From Candidatus Magasanikiibacteriota bacterium (GTDB taxonomy: Bacteria > Patescibacteriota > Patescibacteriia > Magasanikbacterales > GWA2-37-8), in NCBI GenBank assembly GCA_036744835.1, contig DAIOHD010000001.1, positions 335,860-399,859 on the forward strand: 64,000 nt of DNA. Direction: 5' to 3'. The notes under the pieces are model-generated. The model was not told where the DNA came from. It saw nothing but the letters and a program-made list of their open reading frames with translations, and ran no database searches. Within the stretch, counting starts at the first letter, position 1. Every line of letters begins with the position of its first letter. Below, piece by piece: positions 2,217 to 52,201 of the stretch. Position numbers and translations under genes: made by a program.

Positions 2217-4445
2217 ATGTTTAGTTGGCAGAAAATAATTTATAAAAAGATAGTGCCCGGTTTATATTCGATAGCCGGGCCTTTTGTTATTGCTTATTGT
2301 TGGAATTGGTATCATTTGACCTCTGTGAATCGTCAAACAGAACTTTGTTGGTTAACTTTGCTTTATGCCGGTTTAATTTTCTTTGTTTTTTTTCTTTTCA
2401 AAGGATTGTTTAGATTTTTAATTTCAAAGTTTAAATGGCATAGTTTTTGGTTAGATGAATTTATTATTTATTTGGATGAACTTTTTTTCTTGAGCTCTTT
2501 GATTTTTTTTGTTTTATTTTCTCAGTCTGAATTTTTAGGCCTAACTTACGTTCTATCTTTATTTTTTTTGATTTTTCTTCGTCTGGATAATATTTTAGGA
2601 AAACACAAAGAAGATTTACTTTGGCAAAAAGTAAATAGAAAAGTTTTTCTTTTGGCCGGTTTTATTTTTTTGATTACTGGGATTTTTCAGTTTATTGCTT
2701 ATACTTATTATATATTTGATAGTAATGCAAAATATCACAGTATTGTGTTGTTTCGTACTTTTTCTTTGACAGTTTTTTGGCTTGGGGGCTTCTCTCTTTG
2801 TAGTCTATTTTATTTTTATTTTAAAAAAATTCGCCAATTGTTTCTTTTTATTTGGTTAATCATGTTTGGGATGGCTTTGTTTTTGGATATGATAAATACG
2901 GGGATAGTCGGAAATTCCGGGCTTTATTTGAGCCCGGTAATATTAAATCACTTGAGTTTTACAGGGTTAAAAATATTTTTCTTCCCAGTAGCAACTGTTG
3001 TGGTTGTTTATTTTTTTCTGCTGGTCTTATCTTTTTTGATTTTTCAAAGTGTGTTAAAGGCCCATAAAGAAACCACCAGAAGACATTGGTTATTTTATAA
3101 TTTTGCTTTATTGTCTATATCTATCGCGGCTATATTTTCCGTAAGCTCTTTTTGGAACACACCACAAGCTACAACTTTTAAAAATTTTACGGCAAATAAA
3201 TTGGTAAAAAATATTATTATTTCTCCGGAGATTTGGCAAAAATTGGAAAAATTCGGTTTAATTTATAATTTGGAATCTTTTTCCGTAATGCGTAAAGTTC
3301 AGCCAAAAGAAAAAAAATTAAATTTAAAAATTGAAAAACCCAATATCATTTTGATTTATTTGGAATCTTTTTCCGCGCGCTTAACCGGAGTATACAATGA
3401 GGAATATATTGAAGTTACTCCAAATTTAAATGATTTTGCCGGTCATAAAAATACCACTGTATTTTCCAAAGTCTATAATGCTTCTACTCCTACAATTACC
3501 GGCTTGATTTCCTCATTATGTTCTTTTTTACCTCCGACGGGCCATCAAGAAATCGAACAGGACAAGTTGCTCAAAAGACAGTATTTGACTTGTTTACCGG
3601 TTATTTTGAAAGAAAACGGATATGAAAGTGCGACTTTTGTAACTGCGGTAGCCAAAGAGTTTGCCAATAAAAATACTATTTTGGAAAGTATGGGTATCGA
3701 GAGTGTTTATGGTGTTGATGAACTTAAAAAAGAAATCAAAGAAGACCCTAAGTCTTGGGGATATTCCGACCATCAACTTTTTCCATTTATTTTTGATTTA
3801 GCAAAAAATAAAAAAAATCCTTTTTTCTTGGGTTATGCGACGGTTGATACACATCCTCCTTTTGATTTACCTCAAGATTTAGTTAAATTCAAAGAAGGAG
3901 AAAATGTTGTTTTAAATTCTATTCACACCACTGATAGTGCCTTTGGTCTTTTTTGGAAAGAATTTCAAAAGAGCTCTTTGGCGCAAAATACAATTTTAGT
4001 AGTTATGGCCGATCACGCAATTTTTCCTACTGCGTTAAATAAAAAATATTTTCCAAATTTTGGAGGCCAGACAACTTTTTATGATGAATTGTTTATGGCG
4101 GTGTATATTCCGGAAAATCAATTACCAAAAAGAAATGAAATTTACGGTAGTGGTATTGATTTAGCACCGACTGTTTTACATTTATTAAATTTTTCATCAC
4201 CAAATTCTTTTGAAGGTTATTCTTTGTTAGGGGCTCGTAAAAAATATCCTAACCTTATTGGGATGCATGAATTTGGTCTTTATTTAAACCAAGAAACATT
4301 GGATAAAAAGCGACAAGAAGAATTTGTTATGCCAAATGATGTTGATTGTGAAGAAAAAATATCCGGTGATCTTTTAACAATGTGTGAACTTAAACAATAT
4401 TATGATTGGAAAAGACAGATGATGTTACAAGGTCGTTTGTGGTAA
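2217..4445 (+). CDS. Polytopic membrane protein with C-terminal sulfatase / LTA-synthase (LtaS)-like alkaline-phosphatase-superfamily domain
   Basis: N-terminal ~300 aa is multi-TM. C-terminal has NIILIYLESFSARL...TPTITGL...DTHPPFD, typical of LtaS / phosphoglycerol-transferase sulfatase domains. Confidence 0.75.
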   Translation: MFSWQKIIYKKIVPGLYSIAGPFVIAYCWNWYHLTSVNRQTELCWLTLLYAGLIFFVFFLFKGLFRFLISKFKWHSFWLDEFIIYLDELFFLSSLIFFVLFSQSEFLGLTYVLSLFFLIFLRLDNILGKHKEDLLWQKVNRKVFLLAGFIFLITGIFQFIAYTYYIFDSNAKYHSIVLFRTFSLTVFWLGGFSLCSLFYFYFKKIRQLFLFIWLIMFGMALFLDMINTGIVGNSGLYLSPVILNHLSFTGLKIFFFPVATVVVVYFFLLVLSFLIFQSVLKAHKETTRRHWLFYNFALLSISIAAIFSVSSFWNTPQATTFKNFTANKLVKNIIISPEIWQKLEKFGLIYNLESFSVMRKVQPKEKKLNLKIEKPNIILIYLESFSARLTGVYNEEYIEVTPNLNDFAGHKNTTVFSKVYNASTPTITGLISSLCSFLPPTGHQEIEQDKLLKRQYLTCLPVILKENGYESATFVTAVAKEFANKNTILESMGIESVYGVDELKKEIKEDPKSWGYSDHQLFPFIFDLAKNKKNPFFLGYATVDTHPPFDLPQDLVKFKEGENVVLNSIHTTDSAFGLFWKEFQKSSLAQNTILVVMADHAIFPTALNKKYFPNFGGQTTFYDELFMAVYIPENQLPKRNEIYGSGIDLAPTVLHLLNFSSPNSFEGYSLLGARKKYPNLIGMHEFGLYLNQETLDKKRQEEFVMPNDVDCEEKISGDLLTMCELKQYYDWKRQMMLQGRLW

Positions 4446-25796: not shown

Positions 25797-26426
25797 ATGT
25801 CTTTATCAAAGTATTTCATTGATTCGTTTTTAAAAAATTTAAACCAAAGAAGTTCATTAGTGAAATTCATGATTCCTTGGATTAGGAACATGGTAATTTT
25901 ACAGCACGAGGAAAATGACGACGAAGTTAGTTTTTTTGCGGTTGTTGTAGCTGTTGGAAATTATGAATTGTTGTGTAAAGCTTACAACAAACTCCATGTG
26001 CATAAACGCAAAAATGTGCTGAACAAAGTTGATAAAACCGGTACCTCGGTGCTTGATAGGGCATATCTTTTGCCGGTTGAGGAAGCCGATCGAGAAAAAA
26101 TCATTCATTTTCTGAAAAGCCAGGGTGCGGAAATCTTGGGTTACAAAGCTTTGAATCATTTTATCGAAAGAGGAAGTCTTTCGGTAGTGGAAACACTCTG
26201 TAGACATTGCACGGACTTTTCCGCTCACAATAAGTCGGGTAAAACCATTTTGATGGTGGCAGCGGAAAGCGGCCATATGGATATCGTTCGTTATTTGGTA
26301 GAAAAAATAGCTGTTAACCCGGGAGAAAAGAATGATGAAGGGGAAACTGCTGCTGATTTTGCCAAAATCATGGGACACAAGGAAGTGTACGAATATCTGA
26401 AACATAAAATTTCAGATGCCCTTTAA
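25797..26426 (+). CDS. Ankyrin-repeat protein
   Basis: C-terminal half contains ANK repeats (DKTGTSVLDRA..., HNKSGKTILMVAAESGHMDIVRYLVEK..., NDEGETAADFAKIMGHKEVYEYL). GC visibly higher than neighbours; own promoter and terminator. Confidence 0.7.
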   Translation: MSLSKYFIDSFLKNLNQRSSLVKFMIPWIRNMVILQHEENDDEVSFFAVVVAVGNYELLCKAYNKLHVHKRKNVLNKVDKTGTSVLDRAYLLPVEEADREKIIHFLKSQGAEILGYKALNHFIERGSLSVVETLCRHCTDFSAHNKSGKTILMVAAESGHMDIVRYLVEKIAVNPGEKNDEGETAADFAKIMGHKEVYEYLKHKISDAL

Positions 26427-45625: not shown

Positions 45626-45868
45626 TACGGAATTATATCGTTGATAGAAGATCTTGAAAATTTTTTCAAAGAACTCGAAGATGGTAAATACTACCACCAG
45701 AAAAAAATCCCATAACCTTTTGTACAGCAGATACGGATCATACTCCACCAATGGTGGAAGTATCGCAAGGCAGTTGGTTTGATACATTTTCTTCCTCCAT
45801 TAGTTTATTTCCATAAAGACACTACAATACTTTGCTTTTTTTGTCAACTTTGTTATAATTCAAATAAT

Positions 45869-47986
45869 ATGTTAAAAGTAGTAAAAAATTTGCTTGTTAT
45901 AGCTATTTTTGCTCTGTTTTCAGGGCTTATTATTACATATCAGCCAGGCTGGTTCTTCGGGCTGATTTTTTTGTTATTCTTTCTTTTTTACTATTCCAAT
46001 TTAGCTTATTTACTTTTGGTGCGCTTGTTTAATTTTCCTAAAAATTCTTTTTTACGCAGATTTTTTGGAATACTGATTGTTTTTTGGTTATTTGTCACTT
46101 CCGTCGGTTTTTTGATATTATCGGGTTTTTCAACTTTTTATTTAGGGGTGTTAGTTTTACCTTTTACCATTGTTTTGCTGAATATGTTTTTGGGCTTATC
46201 TGTTTTGAAACAAAAAAAAGAAGAAAGTTTATTGGAAGCGGAAGAAGTTCGAGAAATTGTTTTGCCCAGCTCTACTTCTTTTTTGGCGGCAGTTTTGATT
46301 TTGATGGCCGGTGCTTTTTATATTTTATTTCAGCATGAAACCGGCGCGGAAATTTGGACACCTTGGGCGATTTTACCCGATTATTATCCGTATCTGTATT
46401 TATTGATTTATTTGGTTTTGGGGTTACTTATTTTTACCAACAACCATGCTAAAACCTTATTGGCTTTGTTTTTTGTTTTTTCTCTGTTATGTCATTTTAA
46501 TCTGGCATTTACTCATGAATTGATTTATGGCGCGGATTATTGGCGACATTTAGGGACGCAAAATCAGATTTTACAAAATGGGGGAGTGACTATACGAAAT
46601 TTTATGGAAAATCCCGGTTGGATAGAAAAAATGAATTTTGGCTTATATTCTTACAGTGGATTTTGGGGTTTAAATGTAATTTTAAATTTATTTACCGGAA
46701 TTGATTTATTAAATCTAGGTAAATTTGTTGGACCTATTATTTGGTCTTTATTTGTACCGGTTTTATTTTATGCCCTGGGCAGGATATTAAATTTATCCAA
46801 ACGCCTGGCTTTATTTTTAGTTTGGTTGTCTTTTGTTCCGAGTGCGTTATTAATTAGCGGATCATTTAGCTTGCCGTCAAGCTTACATTTTATTTTTTGG
46901 TTGTTCAGTTTAATATTGCTTTTAAAAGCGGATTTTTCAGAAAATAAAAATCAATTATGGGCGTTATTAATTGTCGGATTGTTGCTTTCATCGGGGTATT
47001 TGCTTTATGCTGTTATTTTCTTTTTAGCGCTTGGTTTGAAATTATTAAATATATATTTGATAAAAAACAACTTGCTAAATAACGTCGCTTGGTTTTTTAT
47101 TTCTATTTTTGCTGTTTTGTTTTTACCGGTTTTGGAGATTGTTTCAGGTTATTCGCAAATGTCTTTCAAAAGTGATTTATTTTCCGCGATTAAGCAATTT
47201 GTCGGTAATTTGACCGGTGTTTATTTTGCTTTTGGTCCGCGACCGCATACCATTTCCACCGGAAATATTTTGTTTTATCAAACGCCGCAATCTTCTTTTG
47301 TGGAAAATATTTTTACCATCTGGCCTTATTGGTTGATTTTGACAGCGGTTTTATTTTGCACTTTGGCGATTTATGGCATGATAAAATTTTTCTTGCGAAA
47401 TGAAAATCAAAAATGGCTGGGGGTATTTTTCTTTTCTTTATTTGGCGGGTATTTTATTTCTCGTTATTTGTTAAACGGAGAAAATATTTTGACGCGCAGA
47501 CTGGATGTTGTTTTGGCTACCGGTTTGATAGTTTTCTTTTGTTTGGCAATTTTATATTTTCAAAAATATTTATTAAAAAGAAAATTTATTTTGATTGGTA
47601 TTATTTGTTTGTCGTTTTTTGGCGCAACAATTTATACACTTGGCCCGGTCAGTCGCGCCGTAAGTTCTCAAGAATATTTAGATTATCAAGATATTTATCA
47701 TCAGGTTAAAGAAGAAAAAAATTTTTGCATTATCGCTGATCCGTATAATCTCACGGTGTTAGAAGGCATTTCCGCCAAAAAGATAGTAGGTGGTGGTTTC
47801 CCAATAAAGGGTGATTTTTCACAAACAGAACTTCAGGCCGTGTTGAAAGATTGGGAAGATGGAAAAGACAAAGATCAGATTATAAAACAAGCCAAAAACA
47901 TTACCGGTGCAAATACCTGTTTTGTATTGGAAAAGAATGTAGGAGATTCCGGGATAGAGAGTAAAGTAAAGATGTTAAAATATTAA
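45869..47986 (+). CDS. Large polytopic membrane protein (GT-C-like fold suspected), function unknown
   Basis: >12 hydrophobic segments followed by a soluble C-terminal ~150 aa. Start moved to ATG 45869 after an extended-10 promoter (tgtTATAAT 45851-59). Confidence 0.45.
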   Translation: MLKVVKNLLVIAIFALFSGLIITYQPGWFFGLIFLLFFLFYYSNLAYLLLVRLFNFPKNSFLRRFFGILIVFWLFVTSVGFLILSGFSTFYLGVLVLPFTIVLLNMFLGLSVLKQKKEESLLEAEEVREIVLPSSTSFLAAVLILMAGAFYILFQHETGAEIWTPWAILPDYYPYLYLLIYLVLGLLIFTNNHAKTLLALFFVFSLLCHFNLAFTHELIYGADYWRHLGTQNQILQNGGVTIRNFMENPGWIEKMNFGLYSYSGFWGLNVILNLFTGIDLLNLGKFVGPIIWSLFVPVLFYALGRILNLSKRLALFLVWLSFVPSALLISGSFSLPSSLHFIFWLFSLILLLKADFSENKNQLWALLIVGLLLSSGYLLYAVIFFLALGLKLLNIYLIKNNLLNNVAWFFISIFAVLFLPVLEIVSGYSQMSFKSDLFSAIKQFVGNLTGVYFAFGPRPHTISTGNILFYQTPQSSFVENIFTIWPYWLILTAVLFCTLAIYGMIKFFLRNENQKWLGVFFFSLFGGYFISRYLLNGENILTRRLDVVLATGLIVFFCLAILYFQKYLLKRKFILIGIICLSFFGATIYTLGPVSRAVSSQEYLDYQDIYHQVKEEKNFCIIADPYNLTVLEGISAKKIVGGGFPIKGDFSQTELQAVLKDWEDGKDKDQIIKQAKNITGANTCFVLEKNVGDSGIESKVKMLKY

Positions 47987-48040
47987 AATTAATTTTGAAA
48001 AATAAAAAAACCGATCCGCGAAACGGGTCGGCTTTGGTTT

Positions 48041-48256
48041 TTAACTTTCTTGTACGGCTCCGGCGCCAGAGAGACGGTATCTGTCACTTTTGCAATCGGG
48101 GTTTTCTTTATCGTGTTTACGGTAACCACGAAAGAGCGCTATCTGCATGTTGTCAGCTCTGAAATCGAATGTTGAGCTACAAACCTTACAGACAAAGGTG
48201 TAGACATAAGCGCCTTCCTTGAGTTGTTCTGGAGTGGGTTTTTCAGCATAACTCAT
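48041..48256 (-). CDS. Small (71 aa) hypothetical protein with strong SD
   Basis: CCGGAGGAAACC-ATG on minus strand. Elevated GC. Sits between a bidirectional hairpin (48008-48040) and a divergent promoter region. Confidence 0.45.
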   Translation of the reverse strand: MSYAEKPTPEQLKEGAYVYTFVCKVCSSTFDFRADNMQIALFRGYRKHDKENPDCKSDRYRLSGAGAVQES

Positions 48257-48365: not shown

Positions 48366-48416
48366 TCTTTTGATTAGTTCCTTGAAAATAAACAACCTTT
48401 CTATTTGGAGGATATC

Positions 48417-49784
48417 ATGAAAGTAAATTTAGTAGGAGTTTCTTCTGTTGCTCCGTTGGGTATGACAGAGTTCGCTGGTAAAACTTGTTATCAAAACGAA
48501 ATGCCAGAGTTCATCAGTGATGAAGAAGAGGCGAAAAAATTTGTTAAAGAAAAACTGTTTTTGCCTTCTCATCACACAACATCAGAACACACCAATTTCA
48601 CATTCTTTTTGGAAGGTATTCCCGTGAGTGATGTGACACTGGGTCTTCATTTGGCTCATCCGTTTTATAATTCGGATCAGCGTTCAGGGAGGTATTGTTC
48701 CAAAATGTTCACTTCTCCTGATTTTGGAGCTATTCGCGCTCACATTATTTCTTTGTGGCCAGAACTTACCCCATTTCAGACTGAAAATGTCATCGGATTT
48801 ATCAAAACCGGGACAGAAATTTATTCAATTTATATGGAGAAAGCAGTTGAGGTTACTGCAAAGCTTCTTCGCAAAGAGAGACCTCATTTGAGTGAAAAAG
48901 GTGTTGCAGAAAGAGCGCCCAAAATTGCTCAGGAACAGCTCCGAATGTTCATTTCCACGATTTTTCCAACTGGCCTGGTTCATACTATTGACATCATCAC
49001 TTTGGTTTCTATGTGGGAATCGGCTTGGTCGCCTGGTATGAGAAAAATGACCGATATGATGAGAGATCATGTGTTGGAAAGATTTCCCCAAACATCCTTC
49101 ATGTTTGATGAAGATCGTCGTTGCAAAGACGATTGGGCTTGTGCTTTGGTAGAAATACCTCCAGATAATATGATTGCTTTTTCTCCCAAAGTTACTAATG
49201 TGAGATTAGACATCTCTCATTTGGCGAAATTGCCCGATGAAAAAATAATGCATCCGGTTGATAAGCTCCATTTTACTCCGGAGTTTATGGATAACAACAC
49301 CAATGATGTTTTGTCGCGAGTTCAGATTTCCTTGGCTACCATGGGTCAGGATCAGCGTCACAGAACCGTCAAAAGGAGTGAGCCCGCTTTTACCGGGGAA
49401 TTTTATCTTCCACCGATTTGTCAGATACTGGGACTTCATGAGATAGCCAGGAATTTTTTTAAGACATGGCTGGAAATGAGGGATTCTATTCCGGCAAGTC
49501 TGCTTGCTGCTATCGCTCCGTATGGTGCAGTAGTTACATACGAGAAAAAAGCAAATTTGAATGCTTTTTTTCATGAGATTGCCAAGCGTTTTTGTTGGCA
49601 GGCGCAGGAGGAGATTTATAACCTCAACATTTTACTAAAAAGAATTATTGAACTTCAATATCAGGATTCTGATATTCTCAGCAAGATGATCCCGCCTTGT
49701 TTTCACAGTGGCAAGTGCGCTGAAGGCGGTCGCTATTGCGGTCGCAACATGGAAAATCGCGAAAGCGATTTCCGAAAGGTTTGA
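48417..49784 (+). CDS. Divergent ThyX (flavin-dependent thymidylate synthase) family protein, elongated, with RHR motif replaced
   Basis: HTTSEHTNFTFFLEGIPVSDVTLGLHLAHPFYNSDQRSGRYCSKM aligns by eye to Thermotoga ThyX [42 protein letters not shown]. The catalytic RHR is AHP here, the protein is 455 aa (ThyX ~220-260), and a second RHR-containing stretch QDQRHRTVKRS is in the C-terminal half. GGAGGA SD. Confidence 0.55.
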   Translation: MKVNLVGVSSVAPLGMTEFAGKTCYQNEMPEFISDEEEAKKFVKEKLFLPSHHTTSEHTNFTFFLEGIPVSDVTLGLHLAHPFYNSDQRSGRYCSKMFTSPDFGAIRAHIISLWPELTPFQTENVIGFIKTGTEIYSIYMEKAVEVTAKLLRKERPHLSEKGVAERAPKIAQEQLRMFISTIFPTGLVHTIDIITLVSMWESAWSPGMRKMTDMMRDHVLERFPQTSFMFDEDRRCKDDWACALVEIPPDNMIAFSPKVTNVRLDISHLAKLPDEKIMHPVDKLHFTPEFMDNNTNDVLSRVQISLATMGQDQRHRTVKRSEPAFTGEFYLPPICQILGLHEIARNFFKTWLEMRDSIPASLLAAIAPYGAVVTYEKKANLNAFFHEIAKRFCWQAQEEIYNLNILLKRIIELQYQDSDILSKMIPPCFHSGKCAEGGRYCGRNMENRESDFRKV

Positions 49785-49798
49785 TATTAAAATTATAA

Positions 49799-49824
49799 GC
49801 GGAGCTCACCCTCCGCTTTTTTTA
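49799..49824 (+). terminator. Intrinsic terminator
   Basis: gcggag-ctcaccct-ctccgc-ttttttt. Confidence 0.75.
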
Positions 49825-49919: not shown

Positions 49920-50501
49920 ATGTTGTCAAAAAAAATTGAAAGGGCAATCTGTCTAGCTGCTAGATTGCACAAAAACCAGCTTCGCAAAGATGGGGAAACA
50001 CCTTATGTTTCTCATTGTTTTGCGGTCGCTTGCGTTTTGAGTCAATACACCAATGAGCAGGAAATAATCATTGCCGGATTACTCCATGATGTATTGGAAG
50101 ATGTTCCTGGATATCTTTATGAAGATATCATACGCGATTTTGGTGAGCGTGTTGCAATCATTGTTCAGGGGGTTAGTGAAGATAAAAACCCTAACGAAGA
50201 AACGGATAAAAAGGCGACATGGGGTGAAAGAAAAGCCAAACAGTTGTCTTCCTTGCGCAATGCTAGTGTCGATGTCCTTCTTGTTTGTTGTGCAGATAAA
50301 ATTCACAACCTCAGATCAACAACCAATGAGTTCGAAGAGACTGGGAAAAAAATTTGGGAAAAGTTCAATGCACCGATCGAGAGACAGCTCTGGTACTATC
50401 AAGAAATTCTTTCTATTATGAAAAACAGGATATCTCTAAATCCGATAGTTCGAGAGCTGGAAATGGCACTGCAGTACTTTACCTGTATTGTTCGTGCCTA
50501 A
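49920..50501 (+). CDS. Rel/SpoT-type HD-domain hydrolase (small alarmone hydrolase-like)
   Basis: GETPYVSHCFAVACVLSQYTNEQEIIIAGLLHDVLEDV matches the (p)ppGpp hydrolase HD domain (GEPYITHPLAVA...LLHDVIED). 193 aa, no synthetase domain. Confidence 0.75.
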   Translation: MLSKKIERAICLAARLHKNQLRKDGETPYVSHCFAVACVLSQYTNEQEIIIAGLLHDVLEDVPGYLYEDIIRDFGERVAIIVQGVSEDKNPNEETDKKATWGERKAKQLSSLRNASVDVLLVCCADKIHNLRSTTNEFEETGKKIWEKFNAPIERQLWYYQEILSIMKNRISLNPIVRELEMALQYFTCIVRA

Positions 50502-50527
50502 AACTCCAGAATCGTTTATTTTTTACT

Positions 50528-50552
50528 ACCGCCCATATCCGGGCGGTTTTCT
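50528..50552 (+). terminator. Intrinsic terminator
   Basis: ccgccc-atatcc-gggcgg-tttt. Confidence 0.6.
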
Positions 50553-50556
50553 TATT

Positions 50557-50670
50557 CACCCCGTGAAATAATTTTTGTTTTAACAAAAATTGGCGCAAAG
50601 CGCCATTTCACAGGGGTAAACCCCGTGAAATTTCGTAATTTCGCTTTAATTTCGTACGTTCGTACGTAAC
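50557..50670. repeat. GC-rich nested-hairpin intergenic element (E3) with an extra 3' copy of the outer-stem 5' arm
   Basis: CACCCCGTGAAAT [aatttttgtt-ttaac-aaaaatt] [ggcg-caaag-cgcc] ATTTCACAGGGGTAAA CCCCGTGAAAT ttcgtaatttcg...cgtacgttcgtacgtaac. Confidence 0.6.
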
Positions 50671-50676
50671 TAATCT

Positions 50677-50705
50677 TTGCAATCTTTTTAAATTTGTGTT
50701 ATAAT
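50677..50705 (+). promoter_or_regulatory. Promoter TTGCAA-17-TGtTATAAT for the metK leader
   Basis: Read directly. Confidence 0.6.
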
Positions 50706-50736
50706 ATTTTCAGACAATTTAATAATTAGTTTTATC

Positions 50737-50845
50737 CAGAGTGCAGTTTGTTTTTTCGCCTTGGCGAAGAATCTAGGGATCTAGCCCGAACACTGCCGAC
50801 AACCGTTGAAAGATGACTCTTTCAAAAAGGTGCCAATTCTAGCCT
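50737..50845 (+). promoter_or_regulatory. Candidate SAM-binding riboswitch aptamer (S-box-like, non-canonical order) in the metK leader
   Basis: Contains AGGGAUC...GCCCGAA...GCCGACAACC, GUUGAAAGAUGAC and GGUGCCAAUUC. These strongly resemble SAM-I/SAM-IV core segments (GGCAACC, GGUGCYAAUUCC), and the element is upstream of metK. The segment order differs from the T. tengcongensis SAM-I I remember, so the class is uncertain. Confidence 0.5.
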
Positions 50846-50870
50846 TAAACTCCGCTTAGCGGGGCGTAGG

Positions 50871-50940
50871 GGAAAGATATCAAGTCGATTTTTTATTTCT
50901 TAAATAAAAAAATATCTTTCCTCAAAAGGGAAAGTTTTTT
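50871..50940 (+). terminator. Riboswitch expression platform: antiterminator (ggaaagatat...atatctttcc) competing with an intrinsic terminator (ctttcc-tcaaaa-ggaaag-tttttt)
   Basis: 10-bp antiterminator stem 50871-80/50912-21. The terminator stem 50916-21/50929-34 reuses ctttcc and is followed by T6 at 50935-40. Confidence 0.6.
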
Positions 50941-50946
50941 ATTGAC

Positions 50947-51037
50947 TGTCATTGCGAGGAATGTAATGACGAAGCAATCCCACAAAGTTCAGAAAGCAGT
51001 GAGATTGCCACGTCGTCTGCGACTCCTCGCAATGACA
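50947..51037. repeat. 91-bp stem-loop: perfect 14-bp inverted repeat tgtcattgcgagga / tcctcgcaatgaca around a 63-nt partly self-complementary spacer
   Basis: Read directly; lies between the leader terminator and the metK ATG. Confidence 0.7.
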
Positions 51038-51082
51038 CCTTACTAATCTTTAAATCTTTAAATTTTTAAATCTTTAAATCTT

Positions 51083-52201
51083 ATGTTCAAAACTTGTGAA
51101 TCAGTTTGTGCCGGACATCCGGACAAAATTTGTGATCAAATTAGCGATGCAATACTTGACGCATGTTTGCGTGAAGACAGTGAAGCCAGAGTAGCCATAG
51201 AATGTCTCATCAAAGACAAACATCTTATCTTGGCCGGTGAGATAACTAGCTCTGCTAATCCCGATTTTATTGCTATTGCCAAAAACACTTTAGAAAAAAT
51301 CGGTTATACAAAAGAGGAAGTAGAAAAATTTCAAATTCAAAATCTTATCGGCAAACAATCTTCCCATATCGCGCAAGGAGTAGATACGGGCGGAGCCGGC
51401 GATCAAGGGATGATGTATGGTTATGCTACGGATGAAACTCCGGAGATGATGCCTCTGCCTAGTTTACTCTCGCATCGTTTATGTCAAAAACTCAACGCCT
51501 TGATGATAGAAGACGCTACTTGTCCGCTCAAACCAGACGGTAAAGCGCAAGTAACTATACTATATGAAAATGATAAACCACTCATGGCCGATACGGTCAT
51601 AGTTTCTGTTCAGCACACACCGGAAATCACTTCTCCTGATTTGGAAAAATATGTTTGGGAAAAAGTCATCCAACCTATTTGTGCTCCTTGGCTCAAAATA
51701 GGTCCTATCATCAATCCGCATTTCAAAGATAAACAAAATACAGAATTTACCAAAATCTTCATCAACCCAACCGGACGTTTTGAAATCGGCGGACCTGAAG
51801 GTGATTGCGGTTTGACCGGTCGTAAAATCGCTGTAGATACTTATGGTGGAATTGGTCGTATCGGCGGGGGAGCATTCTCAGGCAAAGATCCGAGCAAAGT
51901 AGACCGTAGCGCCGCTTATATGGCCCGTTATCTGGCAAAAAAGCTAGTTTCTCTAGGTTTTGCTGGCGAGGTAGAAGTTCGTCTAGCTTATGCTATCGGG
52001 GTAGCGCAACCGGTTGATGTCAGTGTAGATATTATCCGTGGTGACAAAACTCGCCAAAGCGAAGCGGTAAAATATTTACGAGAAAACTTTGATCTCACTC
52101 CATCAGGAATCATAGAATTTTTGCAATTGAAACAACCAATTTATTCCGCAACTTCCGCTTACGGACATTTTGGGAGAAACGGATTTAGTTGGGAAAAATA
52201 A
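51083..52201 (+). CDS. metK: S-adenosylmethionine synthetase
   Basis: CESVCAGHPDKICDQISDAILDACL...GGGAFSGKDPSKVDRSAAY canonical MetK motifs. Confidence 0.92.
   Translation: MFKTCESVCAGHPDKICDQISDAILDACLREDSEARVAIECLIKDKHLILAGEITSSANPDFIAIAKNTLEKIGYTKEEVEKFQIQNLIGKQSSHIAQGVDTGGAGDQGMMYGYATDETPEMMPLPSLLSHRLCQKLNALMIEDATCPLKPDGKAQVTILYENDKPLMADTVIVSVQHTPEITSPDLEKYVWEKVIQPICAPWLKIGPIINPHFKDKQNTEFTKIFINPTGRFEIGGPEGDCGLTGRKIAVDTYGGIGRIGGGAFSGKDPSKVDRSAAYMARYLAKKLVSLGFAGEVEVRLAYAIGVAQPVDVSVDIIRGDKTRQSEAVKYLRENFDLTPSGIIEFLQLKQPIYSATSAYGHFGRNGFSWEK

Follow-up and report, generated by a model that had tools for sequence, protein, structure and literature searches.

Many microbes make thymidylate only by means of flavin-dependent thymidylate synthase, or ThyX (EC 2.1.1.148), which humans lack and which is for that reason a drug target. 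The canonical enzyme, exemplified by T. maritima TM0449, M. tuberculosis Rv2754c, H. pylori HP1533, and PBCV-1 A674R, is a homotetramer in which four identical subunits of about 220 residues form four active sites. Chlamydial ThyX proteins are roughly double that length (about 529 residues), and the Chlamydia trachomatis enzyme was reportedly the subject of Griffin et al. 2005 (J Biol Chem 280:5456). According to one paper, chlamydial ThyX was too divergent for inclusion in the first ThyX phylogeny; if it is of the tandem type described below, chlamydial enzymes would be the sole biochemically characterised relatives of that type. A domain-duplicated ThyX, uncharacterised, was noted by Valas & Bourne (2009) in Chloroflexi 'and a few other species'; most Chloroflexi reportedly have no other thymidylate synthase (PMC3224940). 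In literature searches on tandem, fused, or duplicated ThyX, on the architecture of chlamydial ThyX, and on ThyX in CPR bacteria, this was the sole relevant remark.

In canonical ThyX, each active site is built from three subunits (PMC3498832, PMC11940539, PMC6514825), and published structures show that the S88/R90/Y91-type and RHR-type residue sets of one site come from different subunits (PMC6514825, PMC3498832). In the M. tuberculosis enzyme, subunit A provides R95 and R199, and subunit C provides R87, S105, R107, and Y108 (PMC6514825); in PBCV-1 ThyX, monomer A contributes Q75 and R182, and monomer B contributes S88/Q89 (PMC3498832). H53 belongs to a third monomer and stacks on the flavin, and R78 faces flavin N1 (PMC11940539). 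R174 activates dUMP, and methylene transfer needs S88, R90, and Y91 (PMC8316439).

The gene studied here lies in a 64-kb window, the whole stretch of DNA that was analysed, from a Candidatus Magasanikiibacteriota bacterium; all features given below are on the + strand. Its coding sequence (48417..49784), taken from the ORF list, runs from an ATG at 48417 to a stop codon at 49782-49784 as read from the sequence and encodes 455 residues plus the stop. The ORF is real, and public data contain a protein identical to its product (P0001, on a 906-kb contig). Whereas canonical ThyX consists of four subunits of about 220 residues, this 455-residue chain is two fused, strongly diverged ThyX domains, as in the Chloroflexi-type duplicated ThyX. 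The N-terminal domain (aa 1-235; 48417..49121) and C-terminal domain (aa 258-415; 49188..49661) flank an inter-domain linker (aa 236-257; 49122..49187) that is variable and gapped in the family alignment and has little secondary structure in the predicted model.

Profile and structural comparisons identified both domains. First, the Pfam model PF02511 (Thy1/ThyX) matched the whole protein in two stretches with an E-value of 1.9e-18 and 67.4 bits (cutoff 24.8). When the halves were searched separately, this model covered residues 15-224 of the N half (E 1.8e-13) and matched the C half with an E-value of 5.8e-4 and 20.1 bits, slightly below the 24.8-bit cutoff. Comparison of the N half with T. 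maritima TM0449 by hhalign gave 88% probability, and HMM alignment of this half to ThyX supplied the residue correspondences used below. Second, AlphaFold predicted the full-length monomer with a pLDDT of 91.8 and a pTM of 0.90 and the C half by itself with a pLDDT of 85.1. Foldseek searches of the PDB with the whole protein returned nothing but ThyX structures, and the top 50 matches to the C half alone were all ThyX (E about 5e-7). Third, a C-half profile retrieved only ThyX chains from the PDB (best 6j61, E 2.6e-4), and an HMM profile of the family matched PDB ThyX chains with E-values of about 1e-3 and very low sequence similarity. An initial annotation made by eye had assigned the protein to the ThyX family and suggested a fused pseudo-dimer, and both proposals are borne out by these profiles and predicted structures.

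The sequences of both domains have changed extensively. A phmmer search of PDB sequences with the window protein found no match, ThyX being reached by profiles only, and the score against the NCBIfam thyX equivalog model TIGR02170 was 38.1 bits, which does not reach its cutoff of 87.9. This low score and the empty phmmer search place the family far from characterised ThyX enzymes. Similarity between the N-half and C-half profiles was undetectable by hhalign, and the duplication is therefore visible solely through the ThyX family or fold.

The residues that contact dUMP and flavin in canonical ThyX are all present when both halves are summed, and they are split between them. Among 102 diverse family representatives at 50% identity, RHR was present in the C half of 101 and in the N half of none, and an S-x-R-aromatic motif was present in the N half of all 102 and in the C half of only one. 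H52, S90, R92, R176, R314, R316, and R391 were invariant in this set. The N half keeps H52, S90, R92, R176, and Y/F93, equivalent to H53, S88, R90, R147, and Y91 of the T. maritima enzyme; the equivalent of Y91, a residue described as critical, is phenylalanine in 36 of the representatives. The C half keeps, within Q-x-Q-RHR, Q311, R314, H315, and R316, and also R391, which correspond to Q75, R78, H79, R80, and R174, and lacks equivalents of S88/R90 and R147. The full motif RHRxxSxxxxSxR, by contrast with canonical ThyX, is not found inside one domain and is complete solely across both: R314-H-R316 is present in the C domain, from which S-x-R is absent, and SxR(Y/F) occurs only in the N domain. 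Likewise, the equivalent of the dUMP-activating arginine R174 (R391) is found in the C half only, and the equivalent of the flavin-stacking histidine H53 (H52) in the N half only. This division contradicts the idea, raised in the initial annotation, that just one half carries catalytic residues.

Within the N domain, H52 (48570..48572) was assigned by alignment and is kept in 102/102 representatives. The degenerate ThyX motif of this half, GLHLAHPFYNSDQRSGRY (48642..48695), has G76-L77-H78 in place of RHR and retains S90-G91-R92-Y93, with S90 and R92 present in 102/102. The initial annotation was right that the first RHR had been lost, but HMM alignments place G76-L77-H78, rather than the proposed A80-H81-P82, opposite R78-H79-R80 of the T. 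maritima enzyme. We rejected the possibility that a proper RHR might appear upon realignment, as residues 59-88 contain no arginine or lysine. R176 (48942..48944), which aligns with R147 through the match of EQLR to EVAR, is kept in 102/102. In the C domain, the retained RHR lies in QDQRHR (Q311, R314-H315-R316; 49347..49364), where R314 and R316 are present in 102/102. A second RHR some 230 residues downstream had been spotted by eye in QDQRHRTVKRS; it lies about 236 residues on, and its presence in the C half of 101/102 representatives shows that it is not a chance occurrence. R391 stands in R391-F-C393 (49587..49595), with R391 kept in 102/102 and C393 in 101/102, and the alignment to 6j61 around it pairs 'akRlClnAQeEi' with 'LKLRLAPEAQWEI'.

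How might residues so divided form active sites? We propose, with a probability of roughly 0.7, that the gene product is a working flavin-dependent thymidylate synthase of a tandem ThyX type, in which complementary residue loss is compensated in an (N-C)2 pseudo-tetramer. An ancient internal duplication would have been followed by complementary loss of residues in the two domains. The C domain would have retained the share of one canonical subunit (Q311, R314, H315, R316, and R391), and the N domain would have retained the share of neighbouring subunits (S90, R92, Y93, and H52, along with R176, for which the subunit origin of the R147 counterpart is presumed). Since published structures assign these residue sets to different subunits of a single site, the likeliest arrangement by analogy is that two fused chains associate in imitation of the ThyX tetramer, leaving two of its sites complete and two dead. 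Two of the three subunit roles in a site are N-domain roles, and two fused chains would therefore have to pair to make the pseudo-tetramer. Of the four active sites in this assembly, two are predicted to be complete composites and two to be dead, as compared with four live sites in canonical ThyX. Like the sites of the canonical enzyme, each complete site would use FAD, dUMP, and methylene-tetrahydrofolate, and from the retained residues we infer FAD and dUMP chemistry for the tandem protein.

A functional ThyX might instead work as a single polypeptide, an intramolecular pseudo-dimer with one active site and no pairing into a pseudo-tetramer. The halves pack confidently on each other in the predicted monomer (pTM 0.90), and fusion could substitute for one interface of the tetramer. 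However, canonical sites require three subunits, and the N half, present once per chain, is alone in keeping the S88/R90/Y91 and H53 roles. We regard this arrangement as unlikely.

The window protein also differs from canonical ThyX in that its C terminus is extended by a tail and four of its cysteines are invariant in the family. The first of these cysteines, C393, lies two residues past the R174 equivalent, R391. The others form the tail motif C428-x5-C434-x-E-G-x-R-Y-C441 (49698..49739), which is located beyond the canonical ThyX domain and is a putative metal site; each of its cysteines is present in 102/102 representatives. This conservation suggests that C393, C428, C434, and C441 form a metal site, and in the proposed assembly the four cysteines would hold a metal ion or cluster beside the live site. 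Structural zinc appears more likely here than a redox cluster. It is possible, though doubtful, that the site binds a [4Fe-4S] or similar redox cluster beside the live site and that the flavin receives its electrons from ferredoxin or flavodoxin and not from NAD(P)H. We looked for a redox-partner gene conserved beside members of the longer sister clade described below and found none, and searchable literature held no relevant report of an Fe-S- or ferredoxin-linked ThyX. The invariant four-cysteine site is undescribed in that literature.

The relatives of the window protein number in the thousands and occur in Patescibacteria, some Alphaproteobacteria, Chloroflexi, and DPANN archaea. The window clade, of about 450-475 residues, is found in Patescibacteria and some Alphaproteobacteria. 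Its profile matches, in two stretches and with E-values of 1e-28 to 1e-35, proteins of 490-560 residues, and this homology extends to both domains. A profile of these longer proteins retrieves sequences from Chloroflexi (Ardenticatena), Kryptonia, Armatimonadetes, and Fidelibacterota. The longer, Chloroflexi-type sister clade has the same complementary residue pattern and four or five invariant cysteines, as in the window family, and C428, C434, and C441 are among the positions kept. Several features distinguish the clades: their C halves share only about 20-24% identity; the tail spacing is C-x5-C-x6-C in the window clade and C-x11-C-x6-C in the longer clade; and an equivalent of M. tuberculosis R87 is present in the N half of the longer clade (ISR) but not in the window clade. 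Half-length matches of about 235-250 residues, whose starts fall in a conserved internal Met region, are most likely contig-edge fragments; an origin as split genes is unlikely.

Double-length ThyX-like proteins are also encoded by phages, including the 491-residue 'thymidylate synthase' of Microcystis phage Ma-LMM01 and a 461-residue protein (UniProt A0A6B7EUB9). Structural alignment of their predicted models with that of the window protein spans the whole of the latter (453-493 columns; TM 0.56-0.60; E 2e-9 to 5e-9), although they share just 10-14% identity with the window protein. Based upon this full-length structural alignment, the two-domain architecture also exists in viruses. A tblastn search of 50,697 phage genomes with the window protein found no match.

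The gene encodes a variant form of a known enzyme and has an ordinary chromosomal setting. A strong Shine-Dalgarno sequence, GGAGGA (48407..48412), can be read directly 5 nt ahead of the ATG. A terminator-like hairpin followed by a T-run (49797..49818) begins 13 nt past the stop codon, and a second terminator-like hairpin lies on the other side of the gene at 48011-48031. From these flanking signals the gene looks monocistronic. The initial annotation had described a stand-alone gene with a strong ribosome-binding site, which agrees with these features, and had placed it in an accessory region, which does not agree with its neighbours: DnaB, YbaB, RecR, MetK, MurJ, FtsW, RsmH, and similar housekeeping genes of a small bacterial chromosome. 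It had also remarked on elevated GC content. The value is indeed higher than that of the window (0.413 vs 0.342), but MetK and other nearby conserved genes are similar, and we rejected horizontal acquisition of an accessory gene because of this moderately high, shared GC content and the housekeeping neighbours.

Genes found near relatives bear on function. In a survey of 80 related genome loci, thymidylate kinase was encoded in 31 (adjacent and on the same strand in 28), dCMP deaminase in 31, and SHMT in 10, and a dUTPase gene adjoins that of an archaeal member. Canonical ThyX has pathway neighbours like these. The presence of thymidylate kinase, dCMP deaminase, and SHMT supports true dTMP synthesis by the family, as judged from gene content.

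Alternatively, the protein could be a ThyX paralogue that has switched substrate or reaction, for example to methylation or hydroxymethylation of a different pyrimidine nucleotide (UMP or dCMP, for instance), with the real thymidylate synthase encoded elsewhere in the genome, a repurposing that the initial annotation had also raised. ThyX-fold enzymes that act on UMP do exist, as in PolB of polyoxin biosynthesis. The family is far diverged from canonical ThyX, has the extra four-cysteine feature, and varies at the Y91 equivalent. Moreover, no dTMP-pathway genes cluster with the gene in this window: neither tmk, dcd, nor glyA adjoins it, and tblastn searches of the 64 kb with Tmk, dCMP deaminase, and SHMT queries found no matches. 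Against this reading, every dUMP-binding or dUMP-activating residue of canonical ThyX is invariant somewhere in the protein, and relatives repeatedly adjoin genes for thymidylate kinase, dCMP deaminase, SHMT, and dUTPase. In addition, tblastn searches of the window with E. coli ThyA and TM0449, using approximate query sequences, found no thyA or canonical thyX in these 64 kb of a genome of roughly 0.9 Mb, and the duplicated form is reportedly the one thymidylate synthase that most Chloroflexi possess (PMC3224940). A changed substrate is thus distinctly unlikely. Finally, a catalytically dead ThyX-like protein that serves outside catalysis, for instance in nucleotide sensing or in regulation, might be imagined, as neither domain alone has a complete ThyX motif and the score falls under the thyX equivalog cutoff, but it is very improbable indeed, for the losses are exactly complementary and the retained residues are invariant in more than 100 diverse clusters, as expected of a conserved composite active site, and relatives have pathway-gene neighbourhoods.

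A tandem ThyX with its residues sorted between two fused domains and half of its sites dead would be a natural test that favours the composite-site model, and it would indicate how many active sites the enzyme really needs. If the four cysteines bind a redox cluster, the view of the reductive half-reaction would change, and an iron-sulfur flavoenzyme thymidylate synthase would exist in CPR bacteria, DPANN archaea, Chloroflexi, and others. The tandem form is probably the thymidylate synthase of Patescibacteria/CPR, DPANN archaea, and Chloroflexi, groups that are large and poorly understood; because it escapes standard equivalog models, metabolic reconstructions of these reduced genomes are affected.

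ORF 48417-49784 (+), with GGAGGA five bases before its ATG, encodes a 455-residue protein that consists of two tandem ThyX domains, an N half (residues 1–235) and a C half (residues 258–415); an identical protein (P0001) is already on record, from a 906-kb contig. Multiple results support this two-domain architecture, which the initial annotation had suggested. First, PF02511 matched the whole protein in two stretches (E 1.9e-18) and matched each half searched separately (N half, E 1.8e-13; C half, E 5.8e-4). Second, an AlphaFold2 model of the full-length protein (46-sequence alignment; pLDDT 91.8, pTM 0.90) retrieved only ThyX structures from the PDB in a Foldseek search (M. tuberculosis, T. 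maritima, and H. pylori), and the best 50 Foldseek matches of a separate C-half model (pLDDT 85.1) were all ThyX (E ~5e-7, TM ~0.55). Third, a PDB search with a profile of 23 aligned C halves yielded ThyX chains alone; 6j61 scored best (E 2.6e-4), and its alignment took in the RHR region as well as the region of T. maritima R174. Profile-profile comparison of the N half with the C half detected no similarity, and thus the duplication is old. The protein has the ThyX fold and matches the Pfam family, scores 38.1 against a cutoff of 87.9 for the NCBIfam thyX equivalog, and does not carry the complete ThyX motif within one domain.

HMM alignment with solved ThyX chains, that of T. maritima among them, indicates that the catalytic residues have been divided between the halves and not lost. 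In the N half, H52 corresponded to T. maritima H53, S90-G91-R92-Y93 to S88-G89-R90-Y91, and R176 to R147, and G76-L77-H78 lay opposite R78-H79-R80. In the C half, Q311 corresponded to Q75, R314-H315-R316 to R78-H79-R80, and R391 to R174, and equivalents of S88/R90 and R147 were absent. Among 102 full-length representatives at 50% identity, covering both the shorter clade that includes the window protein (~450–475 residues) and a longer sister clade (490–560 residues), H52, H78, S90, R92, R176, R314, R316, H386, and R391 were invariant; RHR occurred in 0/102 N halves but 101/102 C halves, whereas S-x-R-aromatic occurred in all 102 N halves and a single C half. The second RHR previously noted in the C-terminal half is R314-H315-R316, and the proposal that one half alone keeps the catalytic residues is contradicted by invariant residues in both. 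Replacement of the N-half RHR by 'AHP' was correct as to the loss but slightly off in register, G76-L77-H78 being aligned instead. Residues 59–88 contain no Arg or Lys, which rules out recovering an N-half RHR by realignment. T. maritima Y91 has been described as critical and as a possible general acid; its equivalent, Y93 (48693-48695), is Phe in 36 of the 102 representatives, and Phe at this position in about one third of the family fits awkwardly with the proposed role.

In published structures, each ThyX active site is formed by three subunits (PMC3498832, PMC11940539, PMC6514825). In the M. tuberculosis enzyme, subunit A gives R95 and R199 (T. maritima R78 and R174) and subunit C gives R87, S105, R107, and Y108, the latter three corresponding to S88, R90, and Y91 (PMC6514825); PBCV-1 ThyX has the same residue split between monomers A and B (PMC3498832), and H53 comes from a third monomer, with R78 facing flavin N1/C2=O (PMC11940539). 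R174 activates dUMP, and methylene transfer needs S88, R90, and Y91 (PMC8316439). Based upon these subunit origins and our residue mapping, the C domain retains exactly the 'subunit A' residues and the N domain those of the other two subunits. If C domains occupied positions A and D and N domains positions B and C of a D2 tetramer, the two sites with the 'A role' on a C domain would be complete and the two with this role on an N domain would be dead. A complete site would need two N domains, so two polypeptides would have to pair; the resulting (N-C)2 pseudo-tetramer would have two composite active sites and bind about one FAD per chain. Given the residue pattern seen in the alignments, we infer that this assembly and its chemistry are most likely.

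Four invariant cysteines, presumably close to the live site, suggest a putative Zn or Fe-S site. C428, C434, and C441, in the tail motif PPC-x5-C-x-EG-x-RYCG, were each kept in 102/102 representatives, and C393, two residues past the R174 equivalent, in 101/102; the longer clade retains the same four, with tail spacing C-x11-C-x6-C, whereas canonical ThyX lacks this cysteine-bearing tail. The nearly invariant C24 is probably outside the set, as it matches 'ACYQ' of M. tuberculosis ThyX. Two longer-clade members had no conserved redox-partner gene as a neighbor, and the literature searched yielded no account of a ThyX that contains metal.

At least 4847 homologs were identified (8000 candidates scored). 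The best 120 were all 430–491 residues long (coverage 93–100%) and, where named, were annotated as FAD-dependent thymidylate synthase from Moranbacteria, Parcubacteria, Portnoybacteria, Paceibacteria, and other Patescibacteria. Relatives were encoded in 140 stretches of species-representative genomes, the hosts being Patescibacteria together with a group of Alphaproteobacteria/Rickettsiales/'Enterousia' MAGs. When 1.84 billion cluster representatives were scanned in full with HMMER, 1031 matched at E ≤ 1e-3, of which 134 reached E ≤ 1e-30, and the weaker tail included two-domain proteins of 490–560 residues; a profile of the latter retrieved proteins of Chloroflexi (Ardenticatena maritima), Kryptonia, Armatimonadetes, Fidelibacterota, and Woesearchaeota. 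In BFVD, phage proteins A0A6B7EUB9 (461 residues) and Microcystis phage Ma-LMM01 thymidylate synthase (491 residues) were structural matches to the two-domain model as a whole (TM 0.56–0.60 over ~450–490 columns; 0.56 across the full length for Ma-LMM01) at just 10–14% identity, and double-domain ThyX thus occurs in viruses as well.

Pathway genes neighboring the relatives are evidence for dTMP as the predicted product. Over 80 related genome loci, thymidylate kinase (PF02223) was near the thyX relative in 31, of which 28 had it directly adjacent and co-oriented; dCMP deaminase (PF00383) was nearby in 31, a small P-loop kinase-like gene in 20, and serine hydroxymethyltransferase (PF00464) in 10. 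P0254, a distant 522-residue tandem ThyX (L082, 4001-5569 (+)), is head-to-head with a dUTPase/dCTP-deaminase-family (DCD) gene (3454-3894 (-)) in an archaeal-looking context (an ABCE1-like protein with Fer4 plus two ABC domains, and a translin gene). Most Chloroflexi reportedly have no thymidylate synthase other than the domain-duplicated ThyX (PMC3224940). Within the 64-kb window, no thymidylate kinase, dCMP deaminase, or SHMT gene was found near thyX, and neither thyA nor a canonical thyX was present.

Terminator-like hairpins flank the gene on its 5' (48011-48031) and 3' (49797-49818) sides, and it therefore looks monocistronic. Its GC content is 0.413, compared with 0.342 for the window, and conserved genes nearby, such as a metK-like ORF, are similar. 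The surroundings are not the accessory region initially proposed, nor a phage region, but ordinary housekeeping genes (DnaB, YbaB, RecR, HD_4 hydrolase, MurB, transketolase, RecJ, LepA, MurJ, MraZ, RsmH, ClpB-like ATPase, and FtsW) on a small, AT-rich, bacterial type of chromosome. A 735-residue protein without a Pfam match (45779-47986 (+)) looks polytopic, with long hydrophobic stretches throughout, and its gene terminates at the 48011-48031 hairpin. Transcribed divergently from thyX, a 71-residue ORF (48041-48256 (-)), also without a Pfam match, is annotated as a gene on the public contig; L002, the most closely related locus, and one further locus retain it. Directly downstream of thyX, a stand-alone 193-residue HD_4 protein (49920-50501 (+); PF13328, RelA/SpoT-type hydrolase domain) may be a small alarmone hydrolase. 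The ~580 bp of non-coding DNA (50502-51082) preceding the metK-like ORF (51083-52201) had no Rfam match at the gathering threshold and thus contains no recognizable SAM riboswitch. Elsewhere, a DUF3800-V RNA (RF02964; 55326-55421 (-); 73 bits, gathering score 37.4) sits directly 3' of a DUF3800 gene (PF12686; 54627-55316 (+)) in antisense orientation, a known pairing that this CPR-like genome shares. Immediately 5' of the mraZ-rsmH cell-division cluster, this apparently Patescibacteria-type genome encodes an ankyrin-repeat protein (PF12796, E 3.9e-25; 25797-26426 (+)).

Chlamydial ThyX proteins are ~529 residues long, and one was reportedly characterized by Griffin et al. in 2005. A published paper describes chlamydial ThyX as unusually divergent; if it has the same architecture, novelty would be lower. 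The domain-duplicated subgroup was noticed in 2009 (PMC3224940), and no characterization of it was found in the searched literature. Within that literature and to our knowledge, there is no description of the complementary motif split, of the putative Cys4 site, or of a design in which two of four sites are predicted to be live. The window protein belongs to the domain-duplicated subgroup of the ThyX superfamily and is predicted to work like ThyX.
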